Assembly (NCBI RefSeq): GCF_026210795.1
Contig: NC_089433.1
Coordinates: 3,410,001-3,474,000, forward strand
Reading direction: 5' to 3'
Origin: Rhizophagus irregularis
Taxonomy: Eukaryota
Length of the DNA: 64,000 bases
The position numbers were made by a program, and so were the translations under genes. How positions within the stretch are numbered: position 1 is the first letter of the stretch; each line of letters begins with the position of its first letter. Shown piece after piece: positions 3,522-54,244 of the stretch. Under the pieces are notes generated by a model that saw nothing but the letters and a program-made list of their open reading frames with translations, was not told the origin of the DNA and searched no databases.

Positions 3522-5031
3522 ATGGTTACTCAATTTTTTTCGAAATTAAGTCAAAATTATATTGAATTATTAAAAGACGATGAATATTATGATGTCACAA
3601 TTGAAGTTGGTGAAGACCCTAACGTAAAAATATTTTGTGCTCATATGAATATTTTGTGTTACCGTTCTCCATATTTACGACGAATATTAAAGTCTAACAA
3701 AAAGAACAATGATAACGTTTTAACCCATATTAAATTATCAAACACATCACCGGAAATCTTTCAAATTGTATTAGAGTAAGTTAATTATCATGTTATATAT
3801 AACTTTGAATATTCAAATTATAACTTTTATTTTTATAATTAGGTATATTTATGGAGGTATTCTTTCATTGGATGAAAAAGACACTTCAGACCTTCTTAAA
3901 GTTTTGGCTACTGCAGATAAACTTAGTCTTCAAGAGCTAGTTGATTATTTACAAGGATATTTAATTGAAAATAAGTCTGAACAGCTAGAACAATATTTTG
4001 AATTTGCTCAACAAATTAGCTCAAATTCTAATAATTTATTAAAACTTCAAGAATTTTGTACAAATTTAATGGTTCAGTCTCCCGAGAAAGTTCTTAAATC
4101 ATTAAATTTCACTTCATTTCCTGAAAAATCTTTAATTTCACTTATTAAAAGTGATGATTTACAAATGAAAGAAATTGAAATATGGGAACATGTATTAAAA
4201 TGGGGACTTGCACAAAATCCAACTCTCATTCCAGATCCTAAAACTTGGTCTGATGATGATTTTAAAACAATGAAGAATACTCTACAACATTGTTTACCCT
4301 TCGTTAGATTTTTTTGTTTATCACCAAAAGAATTTTCACAAAAAGTTCGTCCATATCAAAAACTCCTAAATCAACAACTTTATGAAGATTTATTAAACTT
4401 TTATTTAGATCCTGAAAGTGTATCATCTCATAACATTCAACTTCCTAGAAAAATTAAAATTAATGAAAACATTGAAGTTATTTGTTCACTAATCGTTAAT
4501 TCTGGTATTGTTTCAACAATTTCAAGATGGATAGATAAAATAGTTATTAATGATAATAATTTTAATGAATCATATTTACCATATAAATTTGAATTATTGT
4601 TAAGAGGAAGTCGAGATGGATTTACTCCTAAAAAATTTCATGAATTGTGTGATAATAAACCTAATACTGTTACATTCATTAAAATAAAAGGAACAGAAGA
4701 AATTATTGGTGGGTATAATCCAGTAATATGGGAAACCCCCCAAACGAGTTCTTGGGGTAAAACCGAAGATAGTTTTATTTTTTCTTTTAAAAATAAGAAT
4801 AATTTTAAAGATGCAATTTTGAGCAAAGTAATAAATTCTAATTATGCACTATTATTTGGTTCTATATCTGGTCCATATTTTGGTGGTGATATTAATATAA
4901 ATGCTTCAAATGAATTTGTAAATTATGACACCACTGAATATTATAATAGTTTTTATGAAAAAAAGATAAGAGATATTGAAGGTAAATTTATTGTAGAAGA
5001 TTACGAAGTGTTTCAAATAATAAAAAAATAA
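3522..5031 (+). CDS. BTB/POZ-BACK-TLDc domain protein (exons 3522-3775 and 3843-5031)
   Basis: BTB motif DVTIEVG..F.AH..IL..RSPY; GTAAG..AG intron restores E-YIYGG; BACK motif EIEIWEHVLKW; TLDc motifs LLLRGSRDGF, IIGGYNP, DSFIFSF, DYEVFQI. Confidence 0.9.
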
Positions 5032-7727: not shown

Positions 7728-9222
7728 CTATTTTCTAATAATACGAAATATTTCATAATCTTTAATAGCAAATTTACCATTTTTTCTTATATTTTTTTCA
7801 TAATGTTTACATTGATGATAACTTTCATCATAATTTGCGAATTCATTGGAAGAATATACGACAATGTCATCTCCAAAACATGGTCCACCTAAATAGTCAA
7901 ACCATACTGCACGATCACTATGATCTACATTACTAATAATTGCATCTTTAAAAAAGATATCATTATCATTGAAAGAAAAAATAAAACTATCTCTTGCGAA
8001 TCCCCATTTACTAGAAGATTCCCATTTTAATGGATTATATCCACCAATAATTTCATTCGTTCCCTGTATTTTAATAAATGTTATAGTATTAGCCTTACCG
8101 TCACATAATTCATGAAATTTTCTAGGTGTAAATCCATCCTGGCTTCCTCTTAACAATAATTCAAATTCATAAGGTAAATATAAATCTCTAATATAAGCGA
8201 ATTTATTATCGATAACCTTATTATCGATCCATCTTGAAATAGCTGAAACAATTCTCAAATCCACAATCTCTGAATCGATTTTGACATTTCTCGGGAGTAA
8301 GATGTTTTCATTTGGTTCATTATCGGGATCCATATAAGAATTTACTAAATCTTCATAAAGTTGATGATTTAATAGTTGTTTATATGGACGAACTTTTTGT
8401 ACAAATTCTTTGGACGATAAACAATAAAATCTGATTAAAGGTAAACAATTTTGTAAAGTATTTTTCATTGTATCGAAATCATTATCTGCCCAAGTATCAG
8501 GATCTGGAATAAGAGTTGGATTTTGCGCAAGACCCCATTTTAATACATGTTCCCATACTTCAACTTCTTTCATTTGTAAATTATCCCTTTTAAGAAGTTT
8601 AATTAAAGATTGTTCAGGAAGTGAAGTAAAATCAAATGACCCAAATATTTTTTCTGGAGATTTAGCCATTAAATTTGTACAAAATTTCTGAATTCCTAAT
8701 AAATTATTAGATTGAAAACTTATTCGATGAGCAAGTTCAAAATTTTGAACTATCCATTCCGATTTATTTTCAATTAAATAACTTTGTAAATAATAAACTA
8801 ACTCTTGAAGACAGAGTTCATCAGCAGCAACCAATACTTTAAGGATGTCTGAAGTAACTTGCTCATTAAACGAAAGAATGCCACCATAAATATACCTAAA
8901 TTATAAAAAAATTATAAAATTAAATCGAAAAGTAATTTAAACGTTTAATTTATTTCTTCATAACTTACATTAAAATAATCTCAAATGTATCTGGTGAAAT
9001 ATTTGGAAATTTAATATGAGACAAGGTACCATCATTCTTTTTTTTATTAGAAGCCAAAACTTTTCGAAAATATGGAGAACGATAACATAAAATATTCATG
9101 TGGGTACGGAATATTTTTACATAAGGATCTTCACCAACTTCAATCGTAGTATCGTAATATTCATCGTCTTCTAACAGTTCAATATAATTTTGACTGAGTG
9201 TCGCAAAAAAATGTGCTGCCAT
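7728..9222 (-). CDS. BTB/POZ-BACK-TLDc domain protein (exons 9222-8969 and 8895-7728)
   Basis: Same motifs and intron position as the 3522 gene; GTAAGT..TAG intron at 8968-8896. Confidence 0.9.
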
Positions 9223-11170: not shown

Positions 11171-12368
11171 AAAAATTTTTTTAATTTTATTAATAAGAAT
11201 ATATGTTCATATAATTGTTTAATTTGCAGTTTTTTGTTGATGTAATCTATTTGAGATATTAGCTCTTTATCAAACATGTAAATACAGGAAATAAAAATCA
11301 AATTTAAAAATTTTCCTAGCGTTGCAATAAATTTTTGTAGTTAAACGCATGGGTAATGATAAGAATCTTATTATGATGATAAAGATAGGGGTAACAATAA
11401 TGAATCTGATTATGATGATGAGAATTGAGATAATATAATCAAGAGAATTATTTGCTGGAATTTAATTACGGTGATATCTTTTGAATTCAAAATAATTATG
11501 ACAGATTTCAAAATACAACTTCTTAACTTGGCGAAAAGAACTATTATCAATTATAATTGTTTTTGCAAAATTAATTAATGAAAGAAATATAGAAAATTAG
11601 AAATTTTGCTGTAAAATTGATGATTAATTCAAAAGTACTATATTTACTATGTAAATTACAAAATTCAAATAATGACAGGATGAACAAGTATCCAGCATGC
11701 AGAGATGCAACCTGTTTCCTCACATAGTTATTAGCTTATTTAATAATTTATTTTCATCTTTAAATATCATTTAAATACATACTATCACTTATGATTTTAA
11801 TGTATGATAATTTACTTCATCAGGAATAATCATATTTAGTGCAAAAAGTGATTTATAGCTTTATTATCATGAATTGGTTCGCATTAGAGAAAAGCTATGT
11901 ACATTCACGTGTACAGGTTTGGTATATAAATAGTTTTATCTGCAAAGTTGCCATTATTTCCATAGCTACATATGCATTTTTTTATGTGATAAATGTAAAT
12001 AAATAATATGATGTTAAAATTATAGCAAATAGTGAGAATTTAAGATTTACAATTTAGACGTAATTACAATATTTATTTCAACAAATAGTAATTGTAATAA
12101 TAAATAAATAAAGAAAAATAAATAAATAACTTAATAAAAGCAGAACATGATTACAAAAGTTTCTATTCATAAGATTCTGTGTTAACATTGTTACTAACTT
12201 TAATACGCTTAAAAAAAAAAGAAAAAAGTAAAATAGAATAGAATAAAATGATTTAGTAAAATCTTTAGTTGCATCTTGTTTTCTTGGATTTATTGGATTA
12301 CTTCTCTTGATACTGAATTGGCCAAAACAATTATTAAAAGCAATAATAGAAAACTTTAAATTGTACCT

Positions 12369-15300
12369 TTAAATTTCATTTATATCAAACTCATATTCTT
12401 TTGTAATATATTCTAAAGAAAAAGAACCAAGTAATTAATAAACTCCTTTACATACTGATTAAAAAAAATAACTTAATACCTTTATTGTTGATTGATTCTT
12501 CAACGAGTTTATTATCTAAGATAATAATAATTATTAAATATGTTAAAATGTAGTAATTATTGTCCAAATTTATATAAAAATAATGTTTACATACTTGGTT
12601 TCGTATTAAACGTTATTGATCTGCTTGTATAAATTGCATTTGGATGAGGTTTTTCATTAAAATCTGGTCCAAGCATTTTTAATTTTATTAATTCTAATCT
12701 TATTTCTTCAGCTTGATTAAAATATTTGGCATCCATTCCCATATTTGACCACGAATTAAAAATTTCACAAACATCCGTTGCCAAAGGTCTCTTTTTAGGA
12801 TCAGGATTCCAACATTTTTTCATTAAATTAACAAAATCTTCAGGAGTGTCGTAAGTAATATTAGGTCGTTTTCCATCAATAATTTTGTAAATCAAATCAA
12901 CATCATGTTCAACATCAGCAAAAGGTTTACAACCAGTTGTTAATTCCCACATAATCATGCCCATACAATAAATATCAGATGATTTAGAAAATTTGGCGCC
13001 TTTAAATATTTCTGGTGCAATATAAGGTATAACTCCATATATACTGCTATCGTGTGGAATGTCATTTGCGGGCTGTGATAATCCTAAATCTCCAATTAAA
13101 TATTGATCTATTTTACATGAATCATTTTCAATTATTTCAACCAATATATTTCCACTATGAAAATCTCGATGTACGAAATCTTTTTCATGAATAGTTTGAA
13201 GTCTAAAATAAAAAATTGGTTATTAATAAAATTTTATTTAAATAATTTTAAAATCATTATTAATTAACGTAAAGTTATAAATACCCATCTGAAATTCGCC
13301 ACAAAATGTGCAATTTTTTCTTCCATGTAATCTCTGCAAAATTCTTTTGTAAATAATTATGTAAATCTCCTCCATTTGCATATTTCATTATAAACATAAA
13401 TTCTTTTGTTATAGGATCTTTTGCGATACCATGGCATTTAATAATATATTCAAATTTACTATCATAACATTGATAAAGTGATTTTAACTAAAATTTTATA
13501 GTTTAAGTTAGTATATTAAATGTTTTTAAAAAAAACAAATTTTGAAAATTAATTACCTCATTTAAAAAATATTTATTTGGTTCTTGAGAATTTAAAACTT
13601 TTTTTATAGCAACAACGTTTCCATTAATTAAAGCTTTATAAATAATACCAAATCCTCCTTCTGCTATTTTTTTAAAAATTTTAATTTGTGAATATGAAAC
13701 CCATTTTATTTTCGGTTTTGTAGAATGATAATCAAACTCATTTTGAGAACTTTGATATTTTTGTTTCAAAGATTTAAGAAATCCTTGAGAATCTTCTAGA
13801 ATTTCATTTAATTCATCACTGGTAAAAACAAGTAAATGACTTGTATAACATGCTTTTGGATGAGATTTTACAATAAGATTATTATGCTCAATTGGTGCAT
13901 TTATAAATTCCATAATATTACTTTTTAATTCTTCATTAATATCTTCAATTTTCTTATTCTCAGGGCGAAAAATCCAATTTTCAATGATATTTAAAACTTC
14001 TTTAGAAGATGGCCTTTTTAATGAATCTTGATCCCAGCATTTTTTCATTAAATTTATATAACATTGTGGAGTATTTTCAATAATTTCAGGACGTTCACCT
14101 TTACAAATACTTAAAGCAAGTTGAAGATCATGTGCTTTATCATTAAATGGTGGAATTTTAGATATAAATTCCCACATAATTATAGAAAAACTATATATAT
14201 CACTAGCTTGAGTATAAGGCTGACCTCTTAAAATTTCGGGTGCTATAAATGGTAAAACTCCATAGATATCATTTTCTTTTAAAAAAGATTTTGCAAGTTG
14301 ATATAATCCTAAATAATCACTAATAAAAATTCCATATATATCTTCATATTTGCTACATAAAATATTACCATTATGAAAGTTATAATGAATAAGATCTTTT
14401 TCATGAATATCATTAAGACCCTTAATAATTTGATATAAATGAAATAATTTTTGTTCCCAATTTTTTGTTATTTCTATTAAACAACTTTTTAAACTATCCT
14501 TATTTGTATACTCCATTATTAATGCATAATTCAAAGTATCTGGATCTTTTGTAAATCCATATATTTTAATAATTTCACATGAATTAATAATTTTCAACTA
14601 TAAAAAAAAATAATATTTAATTAATTACATAAATAAATTATAATATTAAAAAATAATAATAATATTATTATATCATACTTCATTTAAAAATTCATTTAAA
14701 CTTTCATCTGAATTTTTAAGATAATCAAAATATTTAAAAATTACTTCAACACTATTATATTTAGCTTTATATATAGAACCAAATCCTCCTTTATCAAGAT
14801 ATTCAATATTTTCAAATTTATCATAAGGAACCCATTTTAATTTATTTTTAGAAATAAATTGATCCACAATTTCACTTCCACTATTACCAAATCTTTAAAT
14901 ACAAAAATGAAATTATATTAAAAATTAAATTTAAAATCAAATTTACAATTAAAAATTTAAATATTAAATAATAATAATTATACTTACTCTAAATAAATTA
15001 TAAAATTTTAATATAATAAATAATTAATTAATTTAAATTTTAAATAAATAGTATATAATAACTTATAACTTACCAACTAAAATAAATTATCAAAATTTTT
15101 AAAAAAATTATATATTATAATAAATTAAATATAAAAAAGGATTATTATAATAAAAAAAATGCAATACTTACAGGCTAAATTATTTTAAATTATTTTAAAT
15201 GATTTTAGTTTAAATAATTTAGTTAGTTTAAATTATATGTAAATATTATATAAATATAATAGTATTACTTACGATCTAAAATATTTGAATAATTTTTTAA

Positions 15301-18300
15301 ATAAAGAATTTAGTTAGTTTAAATTATATGTAAATACAATAGAATTAAATAAATAACTTTTAACTTACCAACTAAAAGAAAAAAAGAAATTAAAAACAAT
15401 TTTTTAAATAAAGAATTTAGTTAGTTTAAATTATATGTAAATACAATAGAATTAAATAAATAACTTATAACTTACTAACTAAAAGAAATTACAAAATAAT
15501 TTTTAAATAAAGAATTTAGTTAGTTTAAATTATATGTAAATATTATATAAATATAATAGAATTACTTACATTCTAAAATATTTGAATAATTTTTTAAATA
15601 AAGAATTTAGTTAGTTTAAATTATATGTAAATACAATAGAATTAAATAAATAACTTTTAACTTGCCAACTAAAAGAAATTAAAAACAATTTTTTAAATAA
15701 AGAATTTAGTTAGTTTAAATTATATGTAAATATTATTAAATATAATAGTAGAATTACTTACAATCTAGAATATTTGGATAATTTTTTAAATAAAGAAATT
15801 AGTTAGTTTAAATTATATGTAAATATTATATAAATATAATAGAATTAAATAAATAAATAACATACTCCCTATATTATTAAGTAAATAATTAAATAAAGAA
15901 TTTAGTTAGTTTAAATTATATGTATATAAATATAATAGAATTACTTACATTCTAAAATATTTGGATAATTTTTTAAATAAAGAATTTAGTTAGTTTAAAT
16001 TATATGTAAATATTATATAAATATAATAAGATTACTTACGATCTAAAATATTTGAATATTTTTTTAAATAAAGAAATTAGTTAGTTTAAATTATATGTAA
16101 ATATTATATAAATATAATAGAATTACTTACGATCTAAAATATTTAAATATTTTTTTAAATAAAGAAATTAGTTAGTTTAAATTATATGTAAATATTATAT
16201 AAATATAATAGAATTACTTACGATCTAAAATATTTAAATATTTTTTTAAATAAAGAATTTAGTTAGTTTAAATTATATGTATATAAATATAATAGAATTA
16301 CTTACGATCTAAAATATTTGGATAATTTTTTAAATAAAGAATTTAGTTAGTTTAAATTATATGTAAATACAATAGAATTAAATAAATAACTTTTAACTTG
16401 CCAACTAAAATAAATTAAAAACAATTTTTTAAATAAAGAATTTAGTTAGTTTAAATTATATGTAAATATTATTAAATATAATAGTAGAATTACTTACAAT
16501 CTAAAATATTTGGATAATTTTTTAAATAAAGAATTTAGTTAGTTTAAATTATATGTAAATATTATATAAATATAATAGAATTACTTACTATCTAAAATAT
16601 TTGGGTAATTTTTTAAATAAAAAAATTAGTTAGTTTAAATTAGTATATGTAAATATTATATAAATATAATAGAATTAAATAAATAAAAAGTAAATAATTA
16701 AATAAAGAATTTAGTTAGTTTAAATTATATGTAAATATTATATAAATATAATAGAATTAAATAAATAAATAACATACTCCCTATATTATTAAGTAAATAA
16801 TTAAATAAAGAATTTAGTTAGTTTAAATTATATGTAAATATTATATAAATATAATAGAATTAAATAAATAAATAACATACTCCCTATATTATTAAGTAAA
16901 TAATTAAATAAAGAATTTAGTTAGTAAATTATATGTAAATATTATATAAATATAATAGAATTACTTACGATCTAAAATATTTGGATAATTTTTTAAATAA
17001 AGAATTTAGTTAGTTTAAATTATATGTAAATATTATATAAATATAATAGAATTACTTACTATCTAAAATATTTGGGTAATTTTTTAAATAAAAAAATTAG
17101 TTAGTTTAAATTAGTATATGTAAATATTATATAAATATAATAGAATTAAATAAATAAAAAGTAAATAATTAAATAAAGAATTTAGTTAGTTTAAATTATA
17201 TGTAAATATTATATAAATATAATAGAATTAAATAAATAAATAACATACTCCCTATATTATTAAGTAAATAATTAAATAAAGAATTTAGTTAGTTTAAATT
17301 ATATGTATATAAATATAATAGAATTACTTACATTCTAAAACATTTGGATAATTTTTTAAATAAAGAATTTAGTTAGTTTAATTATATGTAAATATTATAT
17401 AAATATAATAGAATTACTTACGATCTAAAATATTTGAATAATTTTTTAAATAAAGAATTTAGTTAGTTTAAATTATATGTAAATATTATATAAATATAAT
17501 AGAATTACTTACGATCTAAAATATTTGGGTAATTTTTTAAATAAAAAAATTATTTAGTTTAAATTAGTATATGTAAATATTATATAAATATAATAGAATT
17601 AAATAAATAAAAAGTAAATAATTAAATAAAGAATTTAGTTAGTTTAAATTATATGTAAATATTATATAAATATAATAGAATTAAATAAATAAATAACATA
17701 CTCCCTATATTATTAAGTAAATAATTAAATAAAAAATTTAGTTAGTTTAAATTATATGTAAATATTATATAAATATAATAGAATTACTTACAATCTAAAA
17801 TATTTGGATAATTTTTTAAATAAAGAAATTAGTTAGTTTAAATTATATGTAAATATTATATAAATATAATAGAATTAAATAAATAAATAACATACTCCCT
17901 ATATTATTAAGTAAATAATTAAATAAAGAATTTAGTTAGTTTAAATTATATGTAAATATTATATAAATATAATAGAATTACTTACAATCTAAAATATTTG
18001 GATAATTTTTTAAATAAAAAAATTAGTTAGTTTAAATTACATGTAAATATTATATAAATATAATAGAATTAAATAAATAAATAACATACTCCCTATATTA
18101 TTAAGTAAATAATTAAATAAAGAATTTAGTTAGTTTAAATTATATGTAAATATTATATAAATATAATAGAATTAAATAAATAAATAACATACTCCCTATA
18201 TTATTAAGTAAATAATTTAGTTAGTTTAAATTATATGTAAATATTATATAAATATAATAGAATTACTTACAATCTAAAATATTTGGATAATTTTTTAAAT

Positions 18301-19826
18301 AAAGAAATTAGTTAGTTTAAATTATATGTAAATATTATATAAATATAATAGAATTAAATAAATAAATAACATACTCCCTATATTATTAAGTAAATAATTA
18401 AATAAAGAATTTAGTTAGTAAATTATATGTAAATATTATATAAATATAATAGAATTAAATAACATACTCCCTATATTATTAAGTAAATAATTAAATAAAG
18501 AATTTAGTTAGTTTAAATTATATGTAAATATTATATAAATATAATAAAATTAAATAAATAAATAACATACTCCCTATATTATTAAGTAAATAATTAAATA
18601 AAGAATTTAGTTAGTTTAAATTATATGTATATAAATATAATAGAATTACTTACATTCTAAAACATTTGGATAATTTTTTAAATAAAGAATTTAGTTAGTT
18701 TAATTATATGTAAATATTATATAAATACAATAGAATTAAATAAATAACATACTCCCTATATTATTAAATAAATAATTTTAATTAAAGAATTTAGTTAGTT
18801 TAAATTATATGTAAATATTATATAAATATAATAGAATTACTTACGATCTAAAATATTTGGATAATTTTTTAAATAACGAATTTAGTTAGTTTAAATTATA
18901 TGTAAATATTATATAAATATAATAGAATTACTTACGATCTAAAATATTTAAATAATTTTTTAAATAAAGAATTTAGTTAGTTTAAATTATATGTAAATAT
19001 CATACAATAGAGTTAAATAAATAACTTACAACTTACCAACTAAAAGAAATTACAAAATAATTTTTTGAATAATGAATTTAGTTAGTTTAAATTATATGTA
19101 AATATTATATAAATACAATAGAATTAAATAAATAACATACTCCCTATATTATTAAATAAATAATTTTAATTAAAGAATTTAGTTAGTTTAAATTATATGT
19201 AAATATTATATAAATATAATAGAATTACTTACGATCTAAAATATTTGAATAATTTTTTAAATAAAGAATTTAGTTAGTTTAAATTAAATGTAAATATTAT
19301 ATAAATATAATAGATTAAATAAATAACTTACACCCTGTAGCATTATTAATTAATAATAATTATAAAGTAAAGTAATTATAATCAATAATTGTATTTAAAA
19401 TTAAGTATATACAGTAACTTACAATCTAATTATTTAAATAAATATTATTAGTTTAAATTATATATAAATACTTTTAAATTAATATAAAATTAAATACTTA
19501 CTTTCTATAATATTAGTACCATAATTATTAAACAATTATATTAATAGTAAATTTGGTTATTTAAAATCTCAGGCAAAATACAATGAAAAAAAATTAGCTA
19601 TTAACTTACCAACTATAATAATAAAATAAATTATTTGGTTATATAAAATAATAGAAATAAGTAATTTAATTATCATTCCGATTATAAGATAACCTATTAC
19701 TTACGAGCTAATATAGTAAATAATTTTTAGAAATAGTTTAAAAATTTAAATTATACGCTTATAATTTACAAGCTGTTAAATAATTTTCTTACCTTTATCT
19801 TTTTCTATTTTTGAAACTAGTTTCAT
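12369..19826 (-). CDS. Tandem pseudokinase + TKL protein kinase with a microexon-encoded N-terminus. Exons: 19826-19793, 47 x 3-nt exons, 1-nt exon at 14988, 14892-14679, 14597-13557, 13487-13285, 13202-12595, 12515-12480, 12412-12369
   Basis: Canonical splice sites join the track ORFs in frame. Domain 1 has GGFG, VIFK, HYNFHNGN, SDYLG, APE. Domain 2 has GGFG, VAIK, HRDFHSGN, GDLG, APE, SDIY. The C-terminus reads EYITKEYEFDINEI*. The kinase body is high confidence; the 5' microexon model is predicted from sequence only. Confidence 0.8.
14893..19792 (-). repeat. Tandem array of ~80-110 bp intron + microexon units
   Basis: About 50 units sharing the core AAAGAATTTAGTTAGTTTAAATTATATGTAAAT; all but three contain, on the minus strand, TAG/CAG-NNN-GTAAGT/GTATGT/GCAAGT. 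Confidence 0.92.
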
Positions 19827-20777
19827 TATGTTGCAAATTTGGTTTGAAAAAAATTTTAGAGCAATTTCAATTTGTATTAGATATCTATACTCATATTATA
19901 TGCTTTTACCTTCGTCGTTACTTTGAGCCATTACTAAATAATTTTATTGGAATTCTTCCTAAAAATAGGGTAAATACAATTAAACGCCTTTATTCGAATA
20001 TATATAGTTGTTTGTGTAATATTATCTATGCAAAATGCAGATACCAATTTTCAGCCAGATATATTTAATTAGGTAACAAGAACCGTTAGAGTATCCGAAA
20101 TGTTGATGACATCACTAAATTAAAAACGCAACTTTCTTGTCGATCATTAGCTACAAAAGAGTTAAAAGTCAAAACTAATATAGTAATTAGTGCTCTTTGA
20201 AAATTTTGTTGTGAAGTAAGAAGGTGGGCATATCAAAAGTCTGAGTAATTTGTGACTTTGAAGACGGCTGAGGGTGGCGGCGTGGCACAAGAAATAAATA
20301 GTTTTTAGTTTCTGTATTTTTTTTTAGTTATTAGATTTTTTTGATTTTTTATCGATACAAGCATACAGTTTAGTCTAGCATCATATCTGATATGTATTTT
20401 GGTAGTTAGCAGTTAGGTTTAGAGTTTTGTTTTGTCTTCTAGTTTAACAAAAATTCAGTAGTTAAACGAAAAATAGAACATGTATTAGGTCATGTGACGC
20501 GGTGTTTTGTTGTAAGATGTACAGTACATTCTAGTCCTCGATGATTGAAAAGAAAAAGAGATTCTATTTATTTTTTGTGAACCATTTTTTTTTAAAAAAA
20601 AATTATAATTATCTGTACTATACTCCAGAGCGAAGAGTGGAGACTATATGTGATTTATAAATCATTTATTGTCCGGAGGACTATATATGTTTGTGAACTT
20701 TAATTGCATATTGGATCACGTGGCGAAGTCTGTTTGAAATGGATTATCAAAATCGATATATAACCTTAAGCTTATAT

Positions 20778-21338: not shown

Positions 21339-23968
21339 CGGGCTTGGCGAAAACTACACCTAATTTTATAATTTACGAAAAAGATATATTAAATGCAAAA
21401 CACATTTATGACTTACAGATGGAAATGCTATGTAAGAATTTGCTGTATCAGGCGAACGGCAATAATAAATTGAAAACATTATTTGCGATAAAAAATGTCA
21501 CAAGAACAGAAAAATATTTGGACGTCAAAATGCCCAGGAGAGATAAAAATAGAAAGTAAATATCATCATAATTGGATATTAGCAGCAATTAAGATGTTAA
21601 ACAAAGAAAATATAAAATTATATAACCATGAGAGCAGAAATAATAACGATAAACACAGAATAAAAGAAGGGAAAATCGATATTTTAGAATTAATAGACAA
21701 AAAGAGATTGTAGAAGACATTCTTGAAGCAGATGGAGTTAAATTGTTAAAATGGAAACACTTATGTAAGGAAAAAGGATTAAATACGAAAGGAAAGACAC
21801 CGAAATGGTTTAAAGATATAGAAAAAAAGGTTTTAGAAGATGAAAATGGAAATTTAAGAAAAATAAAAAGAGAATATATAGGACAAGTAGATAAAATAAA
21901 ATACATATTAATTATTTCGATGAAAATGAAAAACAAGGGAAAAATTGTATGAACGACGAACATGATTTCCCAATTTTTGGCGAAGATAAAAAAAGATCAC
22001 AAAGTAAAAATCACAAAAGAATAGGAATACATTTAGAATTGGTAGGAGAGGAATATGATTTAAACAATTCATCTTATCTGAAAAAATGCGAAGGATGTAG
22101 TAGAAATATTAGTAAGAAAAAAGGAAATAAAGAATGTTTGATATATTTAGAAAATGAATACAGTAGGAAAATTGAAAGACGAAAAGATGATGGTTTAATT
22201 AAACCATATGAGACTTTAAACAATATAATTAAGAAAAATAATTGGTTAAGAAAATTTACGCAAGAAGAAAGAAGAGATGAAATTTACAACGAAAGAATAG
22301 GAAAAATAGATAGCATAATTAAAGCCGATGAAGAATTTATTATGTTAATTAAAAATAGTATTTTCGAAAATGATGAAAACTTTTCGAGAGAAAAAAGAAG
22401 ATTTTTCCTAATAATTGATGCAGTCAAAACAAGATCTACAGTTAACGAAAAAGGGAAAAGAATTTATAAATACAATATTATATGGAAAATTATAAATTTT
22501 AATGAAGAAGGAAATAAAGAATCGGAAATAATTTTCTTAGCCAAACACATGTAATAACGAGAACGAATAAAATGAAAAAATTCAAAGACTAATATTCGAA
22601 TTTAATAATAAAATTAGTAATAGAAGGAAGATAGATAGCGATTATAATTTAGAATTATTATTTATAGAAAATTTTTTAGAATATAATGAAATTAGGATCA
22701 TAGATAGTAATGAAAAAGAATATAGATTATTAAAAGGGTTAAGGAAAGAATTGAGAAATATGTTAAAGGATAAAAATTTAATTCAAACGATAAAATATAA
22801 TTTTGAAATAGTAGACGAAGGCTTACTGACGAATGAATACAATTTGATTTAGAATGATAGGATAATTACAGGAGGTTACAGGGGTTGGAAAAAAAAGTTA
22901 CGAACGCAATTTGGAAAAACGAAATACTTAATAGCGAAAAGCTAAATGATTTATTTATGTACAATCACAAAAAAGAATTCGATTGGCAAACTACTTTAGA
23001 ATTTGTGAGTAATAGAATTAATTTTTCACAAAGACAATGCAGCAACAAGGATACGAAAGAAAGATCCTACAGAATTAAAATTTATTGAAAGAACAATCGA
23101 CCTATAAAATTTTACATAAAAGAAATGCTAATAAAATAGAAGACGACAAATGTATAAGATGTGGAAAAAATGAAATAGAAAGTTGGGAACACATCTGGAT
23201 ATGTGAAGTTAACGAATTCTCGATCGATGAAATTGTACAAGAACCGATATATCGTTTTGAACAACAATTAAAGAACTGTAACCAAGACGAAGATATAAAT
23301 ATTCTGAGGAACTACAATATCGAATTTATAAGTATATTAGAAAGTCCTTCGATAATTTTGAGAGGAAAAAGTAAAAAATGGGAATTAATTAGAGGTGTAT
23401 ATAACGAACATTTCAATAGTCTATCAAATAAGAAAGAAGAGAAAATGCTGATAAAAAGACTTTGGATGTTTGTTTATGACGAAATTAAAAATCGTTTATG
23501 GATACCAAGATGCGAGGAAATTAAACGATTAGAAGAAAAAGCTAATATTCAAAAATTGGATTTAAGGAAAAAAAGAGAAAGTAGAAGAAAATTCGGAGGA
23601 AGGCAAGGAAGAAAAAATAAAAAATAATAGAAAAAAAATAAAAACAGAAGAAAAATTAGAAAAAGCAAATAAAAATAAATTTAACAAAAAAATTAGTATA
23701 GTAAACGTTAGAAAGATTAACAGGTTCAATTGTGGACGGGAATAGTGTTGCAAAAACTTGGGATACATCGGTAAAAATGACAAATTATTTAGATTAGACA
23801 TAATTTAGCATAGTTTTCAGTAATAGAATTTTGTTCAAATATTACTTAGTTATAGAGTTTTGAGAATTTTATTTCGAAAAGCTCTAAGTATTTTTATAAT
23901 TAATTATGTAATCTGTATCAAATTTAAATAATTAATAAAATGCGTCACTATTTAAAAAAAAAAAAAAA
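21339..23968 (+). mobile_element. 5'-truncated, degenerate non-LTR retrotransposon (LINE)
   Basis: Purine-rich broken ORFs; C-terminal zinc motif CIRCGKNEIESWEHIWIC; AATAAA plus poly(A) at 23954-23969; 15-bp TSD AGAATAATTATGTAC at 21324-21338 and 23969-23983. Confidence 0.85.
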
Positions 23969-25492: not shown

Positions 25493-26882
25493 TTATATAT
25501 AATTATATTTTCATATCAGAGTTTTAATAATTTGGCGTAATCGAAATATATTGCTCGCCACATTACTAGAGTCTCGCCCGTGGAATTACTACACCATATT
25601 ATCACTTTTCATTGGTTCGTCTATTATAATCGTGGATTAATTTAATTTTTTATGCATGTCAAAAAATAAAATAATCGATATTATCCGGCCTAACCTTGTC
25701 AAACCCATTTACTTAAATCATTTTTTAAGCTTTTTAATAAATTGTTTCAAAATAAAATGTTTAGGTGAAATTATTTTTTTCATTGTACAAATGAAATTTA
25801 ACAAGCAATATAACCCATATACAGTACGTAACAGTAATTCTTTCAACAAGCAATATTTATACTTATTAATTTAAAAAACGATAAATATTAAACTTTAACG
25901 AAATATATCCTATTATTTTCTATATATAACTTGAACGGTGTATTTATAAATAAAAGATCGTATGTACTAAAAACGTGAATATAAAAAGATCTTTATAATA
26001 TATTCATTTTACAAGAAACTCCCACGCAGACAACATCCAATCATATTTATAATAAAGTATAATCAAGGTAAATTGATTTTTAAGTTCTAAATTTTAATTA
26101 TACTTCCTTAGAACTCCCAAGTCGCTTCAGAATTGACGAATCAACTTGAAAGGTATTTAAAAAGATGGTGTGTTTTTTTAATTAAAGATGTTAATTAACT
26201 TCATTAACATTCCATTTATTTTCTTTGTAGAAAATTGGCTTTCGTGGGAACGCAGTGTAAAACGTTGACGGCTGACGACTTATAAATATAAATGTACAAG
26301 TGAAAAATAAATAATCAGTTGTAAATATATTACACGATAACAGAAAATTTTTCATAGCTCATTCAAACTAAGTTCTACAAAATTCTATTAATTGATTTAT
26401 ATTTATTATATCTTTTATTTATTTTTTTTTTCTACTGTATAATTAATAAATAATTAAATTGAGGCGGCCAAAACCTAAAAATTATATAAATTGTGTACTT
26501 TTGGGTTAAGCGATATAAATTATTTTATGTCATACTTAACATTTTTAAAATTAATATAATCAACAACTATTTTTTGTGGGTTACGTCGAATTTGCGTAAT
26601 TTACTAATCCTTTTTTGGTAAAGATTTATTTTGAAATCATTTAATAGCTGTGATCCAGTCTCACATTCTCACGTTTAGATCTTTCCTTTTTTGATTTATC
26701 ATACGATCATACGATGAATTTATTACGTAAATATTGTAAATATTGTATAATTTGATAAACGTCACATAACTATATAAAGTATAGAGTAGATCATTCCAGT
26801 ACCACACAAAATACCTATCAGCTTGAATAAAATCACTCCGCAACCTTTTTCACTTTTTCCAATATTCAAAATAAAAATAAAA

Positions 26883-28277
26883 ATGTCCAAATTAAATAGA
26901 GATATTCTTTATTTAATATTCAAAGAGTTACGTAATGATAAAAAAACTTTTTATTCTTGTCTATCAGTTAATAAAACTTGGTGTGAAATAATTATTCCAA
27001 TTCTATGGAATAATCCATGGAAATATTTAAATGATGATAATAATACAAATGAGAAAATTCTATTGGATAAAATCATTTCACATTTATCAGATGAATCAAG
27101 AAATAATATAAAGAAATTAGGTATTGATTTACCAACAAACTTATATAAAAAACCTTTATTTAATTATATTAGTTTTTGTAGACATTTAAATTTAAATGCA
27201 ATTAAAAGGATAATTATAAATTCTAGAAAAAAAATTATTTTAAAAGAAATTATTCATCTTTTTATTAATGAAAATACAAAATTTACACATCTTTATATAC
27301 CTCAACAATTTAATCATCAAATACATCTTATTCCAGGGGCTGAAATTTGTTTCTCAGAAATTGAATTTCTTAGTTGTAATACAAGTATTAATGATAATGT
27401 TTTAATTGGTTTAATTAAAATGTGTAAACCAATTAAAGAATTGGAACTTTATATTAATATAATTAATAATAATTATAAAATTTCTGAATTAATTGAAACT
27501 CCTAAAAAATTATTTAATGTTCGATTATTAAATAATTATGCTCTTTATTTAAATCATGATGAATCATTTTGTAAAATTATTGAAAATTCTTTAATTAAAC
27601 ATTCAAATACTATAAAATATTTTAAGATAACTAAACAACCTATCACAGGAATTTTATCATATTTTATTAATTTAAAATGTTTAGAATTGAATGGTAATTA
27701 TCATAAATTAGCATGGGATTGTTTAGAAAATGTTTCTTTACCTTTTTTACAAATTTTAAAAACCATTTATGTTTCAACTAAACCTTTAACAAGTTTAATT
27801 GAAAATACTAATGGTTATCTTAATGAAATAATTATTAATGATATACCTCATGATGATATTGATAATAAAAGAATTATTCAAGTTATTTATAAAAAATGTC
27901 CAAAACTTAAATATCTTAAATTAGAATTTAAAAATAGTAATATTTTAGAATTAAATAATTTATTAATTAATTGTCATTATTTAAATGGTTTATTTTTTAT
28001 TAATTCAAAATTTGATTGGAATAATTTATTTGAAATTTTAATTAAATCTTCTCCAATTAATTTATTTAAATTTAAATTTGATACTATTTATGATAATATT
28101 GAAAAAGATTCTTTAAAATACTTTTTTAATAATTGGAAAGGTAAACATCCTTTATTATTACAATTTAATCAAAAAAATTTGGAACAATATAGTGATCTGA
28201 TAGAAAAATATAAAGAAGAAGGAATAATTAAAAAATTTGATTATAATTTATGTAATGAAGATTTTAAGTGGATTTGA
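26883..28277 (+). CDS. F-box-like / LRR (RNI-like) protein of the expanded Glomeromycota family, intronless, ~464 aa
   Basis: Long ORF; N-terminus MSKLNRDILYLIFKEL..FYSCLSVNKTWCEIIIPILWNNPW; LxxLxL repeats (CPKLKYLKL). Confidence 0.8.
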   Translation: MSKLNRDILYLIFKELRNDKKTFYSCLSVNKTWCEIIIPILWNNPWKYLNDDNNTNEKILLDKIISHLSDESRNNIKKLGIDLPTNLYKKPLFNYISFCRHLNLNAIKRIIINSRKKIILKEIIHLFINENTKFTHLYIPQQFNHQIHLIPGAEICFSEIEFLSCNTSINDNVLIGLIKMCKPIKELELYINIINNNYKISELIETPKKLFNVRLLNNYALYLNHDESFCKIIENSLIKHSNTIKYFKITKQPITGILSYFINLKCLELNGNYHKLAWDCLENVSLPFLQILKTIYVSTKPLTSLIENTNGYLNEIIINDIPHDDIDNKRIIQVIYKKCPKLKYLKLEFKNSNILELNNLLINCHYLNGLFFINSKFDWNNLFEILIKSSPINLFKFKFDTIYDNIEKDSLKYFFNNWKGKHPLLLQFNQKNLEQYSDLIEKYKEEGIIKKFDYNLCNEDFKWI

Positions 28278-29183: not shown

Positions 29184-30692
29184 TTATTCCCTAATAATTT
29201 GGTATACTTCATAATCTTCCATAAAAAATTCACCATCATCTCTTATTCTTTTTTCATAATAATATCTCTTTTGATAATGAATTTCATCATAATTTGTAAA
29301 TTCATAGGAAGCGTATATATTGATATCATCTCCAAAGCATGGGCCAGCTGTAGTACTAAACCATAATGCACAATCCGCAACTTCTATATTACTAATAATT
29401 CCATCTTTAAAAAAGATATCATTACTTTTAAGAGAAAAAATAAAACTATCTTTAGCTTCACCCCAATCATAATTAGACTCCCATTTTATAGGATTATATC
29501 CACCAATAATCTCATCCGTTCCTCTTACTTTAATAAAAGTAACAGTATTTGATTTACCATCACATAATTCATGGAATTTTTTAGGAGTTAACCCATCTCG
29601 ACTTCCTCTTAATAATAATTTAAATTTATAAGGTAAATATAAATCTCTAATATAAGCGAATTTGTTATCGGTAACATTATTATCAATCCATCTTGAAATA
29701 ATTGAAATAATTCTTAAATCTACAATCCTTGAATTAATTTTGATATTTCTAGGGAATAAGATGTTTTCATTTTGTCCATTATCAGGATCCATATAAGAAT
29801 TTACTAAATTTTCATAAAGTTGATGTTTTAAAAGTTTCTTATATGGACGAACTTTTCGTACAAATTCTTGAGATGATAAACAATAAAATCTGATTAAAGG
29901 TAAACAATTTTGTAAAGTATTTTTCATTGTATTGAAATCATCATCTGTCCAAGTATCAGGATCTGGAATAAAAGTTGAATTTTTTGCGAGACCCCATTCT
30001 AATACATGTTCCCAAACCTCAACTTCTTTCATTTGTAAATCATCTCTTTCAATGAGCTTAATCAAAGATGTTTCAGGAAGTGAAGTAAAATCAAATGAAT
30101 CGAATATTTTTTCAGGAGATTTAGCCATTAAATTTGTACAAAATTGTTGAATTACTAATAAATTAGTAGATTGAAAACTTATTCGATGAGTAAGTTCAAA
30201 ATTTTGTTCTATCCATTCCGATTTATTTTCAATTAAATACCCTTGTAAATAATCAATTAATTCTTGAAGACAAAGTTCATCTGCAGCGGCTAAAATTTTA
30301 AGGATATCGGAAGTATCTTGTTCATTTAATGAAAGAAAACCACCATAAATATATCTAAATTATGAAATTCATAAATTAAATTAGAAATTTAATCATGTAT
30401 TAAAATTATTTCTTTATATATCAGATATAACTTACTTTAAGATAATCTGAAATATTTCTGGTGATATATTTGGTAATCTGATATGAACTAAATTATTAGT
30501 ATTATTGCTCCTGTTATTGGAAGCTATAATTCGTCGTAAATTTGGAGAACGGTAACATAAAATATTCTTGTGAGCACGGAATATTCTTACATAAGGATCT
30601 TCACCAGCTTCTATCTTAATATCGTAATATTCGTCATCTTCTAATAGTTTAATATAATTTTGACTTAATTTTGAAAAAAACTTTTTTAACAT
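29184..30692 (-). CDS. BTB/POZ-BACK-TLDc domain protein (exons 30692-30436 and 30354-29184)
   Basis: BTB, BACK and TLDc motifs; conserved phase-2 intron before YIYGG. Confidence 0.9.
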
Positions 30693-32250: not shown

Positions 32251-33754
32251 TTAATTTTTCACAATTTGAAATATTTCATAATCTTCCATAGAAAATTTGC
32301 CTTCTTGATCTCTTATCTTTTTTTCATAAGAAGTATTTATACAAAAGAACTTACAAAAATTTTCATTTTCATTTAATGAACCTATTGCAAGATCACGATT
32401 AAAACATGGTCCATTTCTTGGGTGATTTGCCATTGCGCAATTAATATTTTTTACATTACTAATGATTGCGGTTTTAAAATTACTTTTAAATGAAAAAATA
32501 AAACTATCTTTAGTTTTAATCCAATTATTAGAAGTTGACCATGTTAAAGGATTATATCCACCAATGATTTCTTCCGCTCCTTCGATTTTAATAAAAGTGA
32601 CAGTAATGAGTTTATCATCACATAATGTATGAAACTGTTTAGCAGTAAAACCATCTCGACTTCCTCTTAGTAATAATTTAAATTTATATGGTAAATATAA
32701 TTCTCTCAAATAAGAAAATTTACGATTAACATCCACTTTATCAATCCATCTTGAAATAATTGAAACAATATTTAAACTAACAATTGTTGAATCAATTACT
32801 TCGTCAATATGAATATTTCTAGGAAGTGAAATATTATCATTTGGTATACTATCAGGATTCATGTAAGAATTTAATAAATCTTTATAAAGTTGAGAGTTTA
32901 AAAGTTTTTTATATGGATCAATATTTTGTAAAAATTCTTTAGATGATAAACTAAAGAATCTGATTAAAGGTAAACAACGTTGTAAAGTATTTTCCATCAT
33001 TCTATAATCATCATCAGTCCAAGTATCAGGATCTGAAATAAGAGTTGAATTTTGCGCGAGACCCCATTCTAATACACGGTCCCAAACCTCAACTTCTTTC
33101 ATTTGTAAATCATCTCTTTCAATGAGCTTAATCAAAGATGTTTCAGGAAGTGAAGTAAAATCAAATGAATCGAATATTATTTCAGGAGATTTAGCCATTA
33201 AATTTGTACAAAATTGTTGAATTTCTAATAAATTATTAGATTGAAAACTTATTCGATGAGTAAGTTCAAAATTTTGTTCTATCCATTCCGATTTATTTTC
33301 AATTAAATACCCTTGTAAATAATCAATTAATTCTTGAAGACAAAGTTCATCTGCAGCGGCTAAAATTTTAAGGATATCGGAAGTATCTTGTTCATTTAAT
33401 GAAAGAATACCACCATAAATATATCTAAATTATGAAATGCATAAATTAAATTAGAAATTTAATCATTTTTTAAAATTATTTCCTCACAACCCACCTTAAG
33501 ATAATTTGAAATATTTCTGGTGATATATTTGGTAATCTAATATGAACTAAATCATTAGTATTACTGCTCCTGTTATTGGAAGCTAAAATTCGTCGTAAAT
33601 ATGGAGAACGGTAACACAAAATATTCGTGTGAGCACGGAATATTCTTACATAAGGATCTTCACCAACTTCAATTGTAATATCGTAATAATTTTCGTCATT
33701 ATCCAATAATTCTAAAAAATTTTGGCTTAATTTTGAAAAAAATTTTACTGACAT
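32251..33754 (-). CDS. BTB/POZ-BACK-TLDc domain protein (exons 33754-33495 and 33424-32251)
   Basis: Same motifs; the in-frame donor is the weak AG|GTGGGT. Confidence 0.85.
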
Positions 33755-35064
33755 TTTATAGAATTTTTCCTTTTTTTAAAAAAAAAGAGAGAAAGAGAGG
33801 TAAATTTTTAATGCGTGTTTATATATCTGGTATGTAGATCTCTAAACAAACTTTAAACCAGTTTTAATCTAGTTTGATATTTTTTATGATCATGTGATTA
33901 TATTATAAATAATGTATTTTGCATGTATGAAATGCGAAATAACAATATATTGTTTTTACAGGAAAATATAATGATAATAACTCAGGAGAGGATTGTGAAA
34001 CTGACACGTAGTTAGTATCACATTAACAAAGGCATAAAAATTTGAGATCTATAATTTTTTTATTAAAATAATATTTTATAAATTATTTACACAATTTAGA
34101 ATAATCATAAGTGCAAACTTACTAGTATATTTATAGTTTGATCAACAACTAAAAGTATAAAAGTTTACTAATTAATAATATTAGGAATGTAAATAAATCT
34201 GAAGTTAACTGTTCAATTACAAAACTGATTTTATTTATGTAAAAAAAAAAATTTTACATGTACTCTACAATCAGTGTTGAACATAGATATGTATATATGA
34301 TAAAATAAAAATAATTAACTAATATAATGTTATAAAATAATAACTTAAACTAAAAATAAAATTTGATTCATTTTATTCATTTGTATCATCTTCGATTGAT
34401 AATCTGTAAGAATTGATTTTGGATTAGATAACTGAAATTCAATTATAATATTTATTAAAAATAAAAAATTATAAGACTTAATTTCTACTGTATTATTATC
34501 AATATTATCAAATTTTGGGATATTTTTTGTAAAAGGATTTAGTAACCGAGATTTATAAATAGCTTGTGTGGATGAGCCAGAGCAGTACTTTCATCAAAAG
34601 AAGTAGGATGTGATCTTCTGTATTTTTCTGCTTTCTCAATTTGTTTTTGAATTTCAAAATGTATTTGTTCTTTTTCAAACCCATATTTACTTTCAAGGCA
34701 TGATTAGAATCACTTGCCGAATATAAGAACATAAATAAATTAAAAATTTCAGCTGCTTTTGGTCTATTATTCGGATTTGAATCCCAACACTGTTTCATTA
34801 AGTCAATGTAACATTTTGGTGCTTCTGGCTCATTAATTTCAGGTCTAATTCCACTGCAGATATTTAATACTAATAACTCATCATGTGCACAATTGAAAAA
34901 GGGGTTGTCTTCCAGTTGCCACAAAATACATAATCATGCCAAAACTATATATATCTGCTGCTTGAGTATAAATTTCCCCTTTTAATACTTCAGGAGCTAC
35001 ATAAGGCATAACTCCATAAATATTATTATGATCATTATTACTAACATCTCCACATAATCCCATA

Positions 35065-35257
35065 AGGACCCCGAGCAATATATAAATAGGTAACAAGAGA
35101 TCGGCACAAATTTACTAATAGCTCTACGCATCTCTTCAGGGCCGGCACTATGTAATTCTGGTCAGAATTATCCAAAAAAGGAAATGATCTACATACTTTT
35201 GGGCTCATTCTACGCAAACTCTCTATTTTTACCTTTTCATGTATTGTTCGGGGTCCT
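35065..35257. mobile_element. hAT-like MITE (193 bp) inserted in the kinase DMG motif
   Basis: TIRs AGGACCCCGAGCAATA / TATTGTTCGGGGTCCT; perfect 8-bp TSD ATCCCATA at 35057-35064 and 35258-35265. Confidence 0.9.
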
Positions 35258-37009
35258 ATCCCATATCTGAAATATAAAATATACTACTACTATTAGTTGC
35301 ACCAGCAATATTTGATAATATATTCCTGTATGAAAATCATGGTGAACCATCTTTTTTTGATGAATTTCTTTAAGACCCGTACTAATATTAAGTAGCATTG
35401 ATATTTTATTGTACCAGTTAAGGTTTCTATAATTTTTGTTCATCCAATTCTTTAAATTTCCGCCCTTTGCATATTCAAGAACTATAATGTAATCCTTTGT
35501 ATCTGGATTTTGAGATATTCCATATATTTTAAGTATTCCTCCATTATCAATTGAATATGATTTAACCTATTAAATATAAAAGAAATTTATTATTAAAATA
35601 TATAACTAAATTAAATTTACAGAAAAATCCTGTACCTCATTAAGAAATTCACTTGTGATATGTTGGGAATTATATAAACATTTTAATGCAACTTTTTTAT
35701 TCTGATTGATTTATTACATTATATTGTAATGGGCCATCTTTCCATATTGCTAAATACACTTTAGCAAATCCACCTTCACCTATTTCTTTAATATTGATAA
35801 ACTGATTATATGGTATCCATTCAAATACTATATCATTATAAGTATTAATTTTTGACTGCATTTCCTGAATTAAATTATTAATTCTTTCATATTTACTGGT
35901 CCAGTTCATAGAACTTTTTCTTGATAAAGCATTTTTTTGACATGGTTTGCACCATTTATAGAAATAGAAATATCTGTAAGTCTTTTACATTTTTCACAAT
36001 AATATTTATTTGGAAAAACTATAATATAATCTCTTGTATTAGGATTTTGAGATATACCATATATTCTATGTTCATTACTAGTACTATTAACCTATAAAAT
36101 AAAGAAGTTTTTTATTATATTAAAGTATTTAATTTAAAAAGAAAATCTTATACCTCATTCAGAAATTCATCGGTAGTAGTATTTTGCGAATTATATAATT
36201 TTAGAATGACTTTTGTATTCTTTCTTCTTATATATTTGTTGTCACAATAATTAACATAATTATAAAACAATCGATCATCATTCCATATTGCTGAATAAAT
36301 CATAGTAAATTCATCTTTTTCTAACTCTTTAATATTATTAAACTGATTATATGGTATCCATTCAACTATAATATCATTAAACCCATTAATATTTAATTGT
36401 TTTTCCTGAACTAAATTATCAATTTTTTCATTTCCGCTGGTCCAATTTTTTTCTAAATCATTAATTTGACATGATTTACACCATTTATAAGTTTTCTTTG
36501 TAAATTTCTTACCACACTTATTACAATATAAATTTCGGAGAATTAAAATATAATCTTTTGTTTCTGGATTTTGAGATATTCCGTATAAATACTTCCCATC
36601 AAAAAATTTAACCTGTAAAATATAAGAAAATTATTATTATTACACTTTACTAAATATTTATTAATAGTGAAAATATATACGTACCTCATTTAGAAATTCA
36701 TTGGTAATACTTTGAGAGTTGTGTAGATATTTACAATTGGCTTTTATATTCTGTTTTCTCGTATATTCATATTTATTTGTATCATATTTTAATAGACCAT
36801 TCTTCAATATTGCTGAATATATTGTAGAAAATTCATCTTTTCCTAATTCTTTGATATAATTGAACTGATTATATGTTATCCATTCAACTATAATATCATT
36901 AGAGTTATTAATTTCTAATTGCATTTCCTGAATTAAATTATCAATTTTTTCATTTCCACTGGTCCAATTTGTAAAATTATTTTTTAGATTATTTATCTGG
37001 CACGGTTTG

Positions 37010-52800: not shown

Positions 52801-54000
52801 CCATTATATTATGATAATAGTAAATGTAGCTATCTAAGAAAACAGAATAAAACAGTCAATTTAAAATATTTGCATAACTCTCAAAATATCATTGATGAAT
52901 TTCTAAATGAGGTATAAATTTTTATTATTTTTTCACAATCAATGGATGATTCATAATATTGAAATTAAATTTTAAAATTTCTATTTTAATAGATTAAAAC
53001 ATACTCAATTAGTAAAAGTTTTTGTGGGATGTCTCAAAAATTGGATACAAAAGATTATATTTTAGTTTTCCTTCAAAACGAAACTTGTGATAAGTGTGGT
53101 AGACAATTTACATATGAAAATACTAAATATTGTAAACCATGTCAAATTGATGATTCAGGAAAAATATCTACAAATCGGATTAGTGGAAATAAGGAAATTG
53201 ATAATTTAATTCAAGAAATGCAATTAAATATTAATAACCATGGTACCGTAGTTGAGTGGATACCATATACTCAATTCAATATTATTAAAGAATTAGGAAA
53301 AGATAAACTTATTACAATATAATTTAGCAAGATGGAAGGATGGTCCATTAGAATACAATAATAGTGAATGGAAATATTTAAGAAAACAAAATAATATAGT
53401 CAATTTAAAGGTATATAATTCACAAAGTATTTCCAATGAATTTATAAATGAGGTATGAATTTCATTATTTGATTTAAATATTATATATATAATAAGTAAT
53501 TTTTTTTTTATCTTGATAGATTAAAGCATATTTAAATGATATTTATAGTGATAATATTAAAATATATGGAATATCTCAGAATTTAAATACAAAGGATTAT
53601 ATTTTAGTTCTTGAAAATATATACTGTAATAAATGTTGCGAATATTCTAGATCGATGTGGTGCCAGCTATGTAACATAAATAATCTAAAAAAAAATCTTA
53701 TTAAATGGACTAGTGGAAATAAAAAAATTGATAATTTAATTCAGAAAATGCAATCAAATAATGATAACCATGATTTCATAGTTGAATGGATACCTTATAA
53801 TCGCTTCAGTGATATTGAAGAGTTAGGAAAAAATAAATTTGATACAATATATTCAGCAATATGGGAAGATGGTTTATTAAAATATGACAGTGATAAATAT
53901 GAATATACAAGAAGGCAGAATACAAAAGTCAATTTAAAACAGTTATATAATTCACAGAATATTTCTAATAAATTTCTAAATGAGGTATGAAATCTTTATT

Positions 54001-54244
54001 TTTATTTTTTATTTTTATTTAACAGTAATAGTTAGCGGATACAAATTTTATAAACATATCAAAAATGAAAAAGTAAAATAAAAAAATGAACTAAACTATC
54101 AGAAGAATCTACTTCGACGGTGGGGCAATTAAACACGAAACTATTAAAGATATAACCAACTACACCTAAAAACCATTTCTTTAATTAACCCACTACCTCC
54201 CATACGCTAGCCGAAACTTGGTAAGTTGAAGCCCGCCCTGCAGA
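54001..54244 (-). mobile_element. Short retroposed insertion at a splice donor
   Basis: 18-bp TSD AGGTATGAAATCTTTATT at 53983-54000 and 54245-54262; T-rich tract at the left end is an A-rich tail on the minus strand. Confidence 0.75.

Follow-up and report, generated by a model that had tools for sequence, protein, structure and literature searches.

A minus-strand protein kinase gene of the fungus Rhizophagus irregularis was found to carry, ahead of its kinase domains, a run of 47 consecutive three-base exons followed by a single one-base exon. The gene lies in a 64,000-nt stretch of contig NC_089433.1 (positions 3,410,001 to 3,474,000; hereafter the window, whose own coordinates are used throughout), where a tandem array of 10-11% GC stands upstream of the kinase exons in an AT-rich eukaryotic setting. 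That the array is real was confirmed by its exon anatomy, by an intact reading frame and by in-order splicing of its last eleven exons. We consider it probable that the array encodes a serially spliced N-terminal segment, that the main message likely contains most or all of the microexons, and that the segment varies chiefly through duplication and loss of cassettes in the DNA.

The three-base exons extend from 19707 to 15074 on the minus strand, each preceded by YAG and followed by a GTAAG, GTATG or GCAAG donor. GCAAG was used twice, by an exon at 16402..16404 (minus strand) that is outside the visible RNA letters and by one at 15666..15668 (minus strand) that was present in a transcript contig; all other donors were GTAAG or GTATG. 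Array introns measured 75-105 nt each, plus three of 186 nt. Between 19790 and 14900, 47 of the 50 strong donors were preceded by an AG exactly three bases upstream, and the spectrum of AG-to-donor spacings from 0 to 12 nt held 47 cases of 3 nt, one of 1 nt, one of 10 nt and none of any other length. A scan of the other 123,100 bases turned up two instances of the YAG-NNN-donor motif. A CTT at 19772 was rejected as an exon, as its intron would measure 20 nt; this candidate and those at 19031 (TT), 17058 and 16587 (both TAA) were also rejected because they overlap real sites.

The one-base exon (A; 14988..14988, minus strand) was required by the reading frame and present in transcript contigs from two sequencing runs (X1 and X2, described below), and both of its splice sites were conserved in a homologous metagenome contig. 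It shifts phase 1 to phase 2, thereby reaching the kinase frame. An earlier interpretation of this DNA from its letters alone (hereafter the sequence-only reading) had placed the array at 15074..19707; the 47 three-base exons lie inside these bounds, and the one-base exon, which falls outside them, had been overlooked. Upstream, exon 1 is predicted at 19910..19931 (minus strand; ATG, 22 coding nt, ending in phase 1) from sequence and matching paralog transcripts, and exon 2 is predicted at 19793..19816 (minus strand; 24 nt, phase 1 to phase 1) from AG and GTAAG sites, with an inferred boundary whose start is resembled by loose ends of paralog reads and of a paralog contig. Both upstream exons end in phase 1, as the sequence-only reading had stated for the first. 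An in-frame ATG 5' of exon 2 is a possible alternative start. The complete gene model of 56 exons encodes 777 aa with no internal stop; omitting the one-base exon, or all microexons, produced a stop at codon 34, and retaining only the one-base exon left the frame open.

Downstream of the array (all minus strand), the kinase-1 N-lobe exon (14679..14892) was covered by the X1 contig with 0 mismatches and had Rhizophagus homologs of up to 89% identity. The rest of kinase 1 and the start of kinase 2 (13557..14597) were identified by Pfam, by motifs and by an X3 joint at 13487/13557, the next kinase-2 exon (13285..13487) by the gene model with partial X3 coverage, and the kinase-2 C-lobe exon (12595..13202) by Pfam and intact HRD, DLG and APE motifs. 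A short tail exon (12480..12515) is predicted from GT/AG sites and frame, and the last coding exon with the stop (12368..12412) from the gene model. Pfam searches of the large exons returned kinase domains only (PF00069/PF07714), so the host is not a NACHT-ankyrin NOD-like receptor (NLR). Kinase 1 has HYN where HRD is expected, lacks DFG and is missing the catalytic Asp, and kinase 2 has canonical VAIK, HRD, DLG and APE motifs; kinase 1 is thus a predicted pseudokinase and kinase 2 a predicted active kinase, in a tandem pseudokinase-kinase arrangement. The closest relatives in protein searches were R. irregularis, R. diaphanus and R. clarus proteins (up to 83-90% identity), which, all being from Rhizophagus, mark the gene as a Glomeromycotina kinase. 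By Pfam and best matches rather than by a tree, it is assigned to the expanded tyrosine-kinase-like kinases of Rhizophagus; kinase family expansion in R. irregularis is stated in PMC4219462.

Transcript evidence came from four public sequencing runs (X1-X4), whose RNA type was only guessed, and splicing was judged from joints lacking introns. These possibly-RNA runs contained 71-79% of the kinase words, and alignments were made over 13400-15200 (all four runs) and over 19335-20500 (X1, X3, X4 and a further run, X24). Canonical introns had been removed at joint 14597/14679 in X1, X2 and X4 and at joint 13487/13557 in X3, and the runs therefore represent spliced transcripts. A 905-nt X1 contig (depth 17) aligned with 0 mismatches over 728 nt, with intron 14598-14678 removed, and ran on for 177 letters past the 14892 exon; the 30 of these letters that are visible matched the predicted join at 30/30 positions. 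They comprise the one-base exon and the ten three-base exons before it, the outermost of these represented by two bases and the other nine in full; the order is that of the genome, with none skipped and a GC-donor exon included, so that the last eight exons of the repetitive core are covered by this contig. In X2, which comes from a separate study, 13/13 letters corresponded to the last four three-base exons and the one-base exon, after which the contig ended.

At the other end of the array (19335-20500), X1 and X4 gave no alignment, and matches of 34-44 letters from other runs did align. The alignments obtained were mostly paralog reads; over intron 1 and close to 19335, X24 contributed reads in numbers too small for interpretation. 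Reads on exon 1 were mismatched and continued into exon-2-like sequence, which identifies them as paralogs sharing the exon 1/exon 2 layout. As 34-44 letters sufficed for detection and X1 was blank at exon 1, fewer than 34-44 of the 177 letters should belong to exon 1, from which we infer that at least 37-40 of the 47 exons are included in the X1 contig; were all 47 present, exon 1 would account for 11 letters, which is compatible with the blank. Separately, X1, X3 and X4 contigs over 14197-14806 showed a joint that leaves out 608 bases, with non-canonical ends and mismatches nearby, probably from a paralog.

A pattern scan of metagenome contigs returned a single contig (L001, 1,330 nt), a close homolog that keeps the one-base exon with both splice sites and most of the intron before it. 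Its upstream sequence was unrelated, with no three-base exon in the ~480 nt upstream of the one-base exon, and L001 thus shows a region that is apparently variable among copies. The homologous part (L001:497-1330, minus strand) diverged abruptly ~75 nt upstream of the one-base exon, and an 18-nt exon-like candidate in the contig would give a stop in phase 1, so that the copy looks disrupted. Among 386 fetched proteins, 50 had the motif that opens the 14892 exon, and their modelled N-termini were heterogeneous, often beginning at or just before this motif, as expected if gene predictors overlook microexons. Four Rhizophagus models of the same kinase subfamily (P0150, P0157, P0312 and P0352) had tandem acidic repeats of ~7 residues in the N-terminal segment, which may represent a second way of varying it.

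The array is not uniform along its length. An older 5' run (19332..19707, minus strand) holds five exons (CTC, TTG, AAA, ATT and GGT) with canonical sites and mostly unique introns, and an older 3' run (15074..15174, minus strand) holds CCT and TTG exons with unique introns, both present in the X1 and X2 loose ends. Between them lies a young tandem core (15211..19314, minus strand) of 40 three-base exons (19235 to 15273) in AT-, GGA- and TT-type cassettes, with a period of ~91 bp and a 471-bp higher-order repeat (Tandem Repeats Finder). When cassette classes were defined from flanking intron sequence, the AT class held 22 units (ATC 11, ATT 5, AAT 4 and ATA 2), the GGA class was invariant (13/13) and the TT class held 7 units, two of them in the old flanks, with five further exons unclassified. 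For most core introns the identity to some other intron was 94-100%, and exact repeats extended to 338 bp; the outer introns were unique (best identity 0.68-0.84; 0.69-0.84 before exons 1-5) yet kept their splice sites. Unique outer introns around a near-identical core suggest an older, short microexon run whose core expanded recently, probably by unequal crossover or slippage. The three 186-nt introns (17516..17701, 17063..17248 and 16592..16777, minus strand) each consist of two fused units and derive from one cassette, in which acceptor, exon and donor were deleted before it was copied; the second copy was 99-100% identical to the other two. Unequal crossover as a means of reshuffling at the DNA level, proposed in the sequence-only reading, fits this structure of near-identical cassettes, higher-order repeat and exact repeats.

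In nearly all core introns (15276-19331, minus strand) a match to the branch point, CTAAC, lay 35-43 nt upstream of the acceptor, versus 21 nt in one ordinary kinase intron. A distant branch point may aid inclusion of tiny exons. The core units are of one ancestry, and the old flanking introns show a distant CTAAC inconsistently.

The repeat structure of the array would also be produced by neutral or weakly selected expansion, in this lineage, of an AT-rich minisatellite in a tolerant N-terminal linker that already held an old, short microexon run, with selection acting on the frame and splice sites and the peptide having no specific role, an explanation that we regard as somewhat unlikely. 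The repeats are very recent and homogeneous, exon changes are not in significant excess, the family is large with repetitive N-termini in paralog models, and the W/R/N/H richness of the peptide is a direct consequence of the expansion having happened to involve GGA and ATx cassettes. The commonest change, ATC to ATT, would be a C-to-T change at the CpG formed with the donor G, a mutation hotspot given that CpG methylation occurs in Rhizophagus. However, both splice sites were kept in 48/48 exons, even in the unique old introns, wherever an exon was lost its acceptor and donor had gone cleanly with it, and the gene, which is transcribed, retains its full 777-aa frame. Similar arrays are also found at recognition-type genes, namely the NLR-type nank (NACHT-ankyrin) genes of Tuber melanosporum, which are reported to have tens of alternatively spliced codon-sized exons (Iotti et al. 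2012, as cited in PMC10197012, PMC4986451, PMC13449251, PMC3689799 and PMC9815663). Upkeep of splice sites reflects constraint on splicing and not on the peptide, and neutral expansion therefore stays compatible with these observations.

The codon rules set out in the sequence-only reading were reproduced. A codon completed by GG is read as W when the preceding exon ends in T and as R when it ends in C or A, one completed by AT is read as N, H, D or Y, and TAA is the sole reachable stop, with none of the five AA-starting exons following a T; the 48 residues include 10 N, 7 W, 7 R, 5 H, 4 F, 3 E and 3 D, in line with the composition claimed. Skipping keeps the frame and recodes junctions as proposed, but it introduced a stop in 2/47 single and 88/1081 double skips. 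The further claim that split codons are a design for combinatorial skipping was not borne out. Avoidance of T+AA was at chance level (P=0.17 under shuffling, with array units that are not independent), an open frame is required anyway under full inclusion, and the phase of the array is a continuation of that of the upstream exons, whose layout is common to paralog transcripts. At random skip rates of 2%, 5%, 10%, 30% and 50%, stop-containing messages amounted to 4%, 9%, 16%, 35% and 42%, partly because any T-ending exon ahead of the one-base exon yields TAA.

How much skipping the X1 contig allows was estimated by simulation at depth 17 (150 runs per setting). An unbroken path over 30 letters was obtained in 0/150 runs at 50% skipping, in 7-8% at 30% and in 39-58% at 20%; over all 177 letters the outcome was 0/150 at 20%, 5-9% at 15%, ~50% at 10% and 95% at 5%. 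Per-exon skipping near 50% is thereby excluded and 30% is unlikely. Of the alternative splicing put forward in the sequence-only reading, the splicing of the exons as such is upheld, and heavy skipping is disfavored by the in-order X1 contig and the simulation, so that the idea stands only in a weaker form, that of light skipping.

It is improbable, in our judgment, that combinatorial splicing is the main function of the array, with modest per-exon skipping generating thousands of junction-recoded peptides, as has been reported for the Tuber nank genes. This view has a precedent in the alternatively spliced codon-sized exons of that fungal receptor family; single skips would give 37 and double skips 668 distinct peptides, and 5% skipping, which leaves 9% of messages full-length and ~9% with a stop, is fully compatible with the X1 contig. 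The early end of the X2 contig would also suit it. On the other side, no skipped form appeared in any displayed contig or read row, a negative that contigs cannot turn into proof of absence, skipping at 30-50% is disfavored by the simulation and would put stops into 35-42% of messages, and stop avoidance was not significant. A two-level diversity generator, in which crossover between isolates or nuclei is combined with skipping of a few percent per exon, enough to make most transcripts differ and to recode each junction by its context, to give a hypervariable nonself- or partner-sensing segment in a multinucleate fungus, is likewise doubtful. That the array is an artefact, either a misassembly, to which tandem repeats are prone, or a minisatellite within an intron that resembles splice sites by chance, is hardly credible. 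Transcripts, from runs of guessed type, give a direct view of no more than the fifth of the exons nearest the 3' end, but for that part an artefact is refuted by intron-free contigs joined at canonical sites and by the 30/30 match in exact order including repeat exons and a GC-donor exon; the near absence of the motif elsewhere also speaks against it.

Under the favored reading, in which the segment is spliced serially and changes mainly through its DNA, an older run of ~8-12 microexons would have given rise to three cassettes, which then expanded by unequal crossover or slippage. Gain, loss or reordering of a cassette would add or remove a single residue and could also recode the residue next to it, since the codons are interrupted by introns; junction recoding would then be a side effect by which any one DNA change has a larger outcome. 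The predicted product is an N/W/R/H-rich segment of 48 residues ahead of the predicted pseudokinase and predicted active kinase, and a variable role in binding or specificity is plausible for it. Further variants may come from occasional skipping, which is likely not the main source.

Several observations weigh against this reading. Changes showed no significant excess on exon bases (AT class, P=0.10; all classes together, P=0.44), and polymorphism at the DNA level is deduced from one array sequence. Only 30 of the 177 upstream letters in X1 are visible, the blank of X1 at exon 1 may not be genuine, and the 177 letters could instead be made up by an array intron left unspliced or by an allele from another strain. 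The X2 contig, stopping after 13 letters, could mark a skipping branch point, a paralog or low cover, and at 14892 none of the displayed X3 and X4 rows had a loose end that was informative, a further 17 rows being hidden. Contigs lose rare variants, and per-exon skipping of 2-10% is still compatible with the data; with 47 exons, complete messages would make up 39%, 9% and 0.7% at 2%, 5% and 10% skipping. L001 is one short and probably disrupted contig. No array-like segment was found in the 386 fetched proteins (best local blastp E=0.16), though exons of this kind would escape gene predictors. The favored reading, neutral expansion and combinatorial splicing can overlap.

Elsewhere in the window, four similar genes were found at 3775-5031 (plus strand), 7728-8900, 29184-30359 and 32251-33429 (all minus strand); the first has BACK and TLDc domains (Pfam), and the other three look alike by translation. 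Kinase-like loci at 34553-40209 (minus strand) and 51857-59138 (plus strand) have many repeated CxxC N-terminal modules, each in its own exon-sized frame, and no three-base exon array was found at either locus. At 54904-56615 lies a satellite that repeats every 79-81 bp, with a higher-order period of 160 bp, and contains AACGTT motifs, which are self-complementary. Broken lysine-rich frames at 21895-23627 (plus strand) had no Pfam match and look by eye like a decayed retroelement. Exon-sized frames at 44176-45649 (minus strand) include a haem motif that we take to be cytochrome P450-like, and a 495-aa frame at 26790-28277 (plus strand), with no Pfam match at E<=0.001, resembles the F-box/LRR-like proteins common in these fungi.

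The closest published counterpart is the nank family of Tuber, in which, as here, a mycorrhizal fungus has tens of 3-bp exons in one gene, itself a member of a signalling family that has expanded. The host in the present case is a Glomeromycotina pseudokinase-kinase instead of an NLR, and the array is N-terminal; split codons in phase 1 and a terminal one-base exon are features of the kinase array, exon phase in Tuber being outside this comparison. Extensive alternative splicing is reported for Tuber, whereas only in-order inclusion was observed for the kinase array. Plants have isolated coding microexons of 1-15 nt, including the 1-nt exons of APC11 and VPS55 (PMC8831610). Like these, the one-base exon is needed for the frame and was overlooked by annotation, with wrong N-termini as the result, but plant microexons are single or paired and conserved, in contrast to a run of 48. 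In fungal NLRs, repeats of high internal conservation consist of near-identical tandem units reshuffled by unequal crossing-over (PMC9815663 and PMC10197012); the kinase array shares near-identical tandem units able to vary a protein segment, although the NLR unit is a whole coding repeat and the array unit is a ~90 bp intron with three coding bases.

By the operational rule of a tapeworm genome paper (bioRxiv 10.1101/2020.04.08.031872), micro-exon genes (MEGs) of parasitic flatworms have seven or more exons, of which half or more are short with lengths in multiples of three, four or more of them consecutively. By this rule the kinase gene qualifies, with at least 48 of 56 modelled exons, consecutively (exon 2 and the 47). 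MEGs vary by exon skipping, whereas no skipped isoform was seen in the displayed contigs, which drop rare variants, and the array differs further in belonging to another kingdom, in its intracellular kinase host and in having all of its exons at the 3-nt minimum through recent tandem duplication. The products of MEGs are mostly secreted. In Dscam, one exon is chosen per cluster. The exons of the kinase array are similarly duplicated in tandem within one gene, but mutually exclusive choice does not apply because ten consecutive three-base exons were joined in one contig. No report of microexon arrays in Rhizophagus, arbuscular mycorrhizal fungi or Glomeromycotina was found in the literature listings searched, to which subscription papers and supplements could add.

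The array extends codon-sized exon arrays from the NLRs of Tuber to the expanded kinases of arbuscular mycorrhizal fungi. Its 48 consecutive exons of 1-3 bases, the last eleven of them supported by transcripts, are an extreme substrate for the spliceosome and offer a direct test of how exons far below the spliceosome footprint are defined. In public models of the kinase subfamily, the N-termini are arbitrary and fall immediately ahead of this exon border, so that annotation may be hiding a variable segment across the family. If the array proves polymorphic or lightly skipped, it would be a concrete candidate for varying signalling specificity in these fungi.

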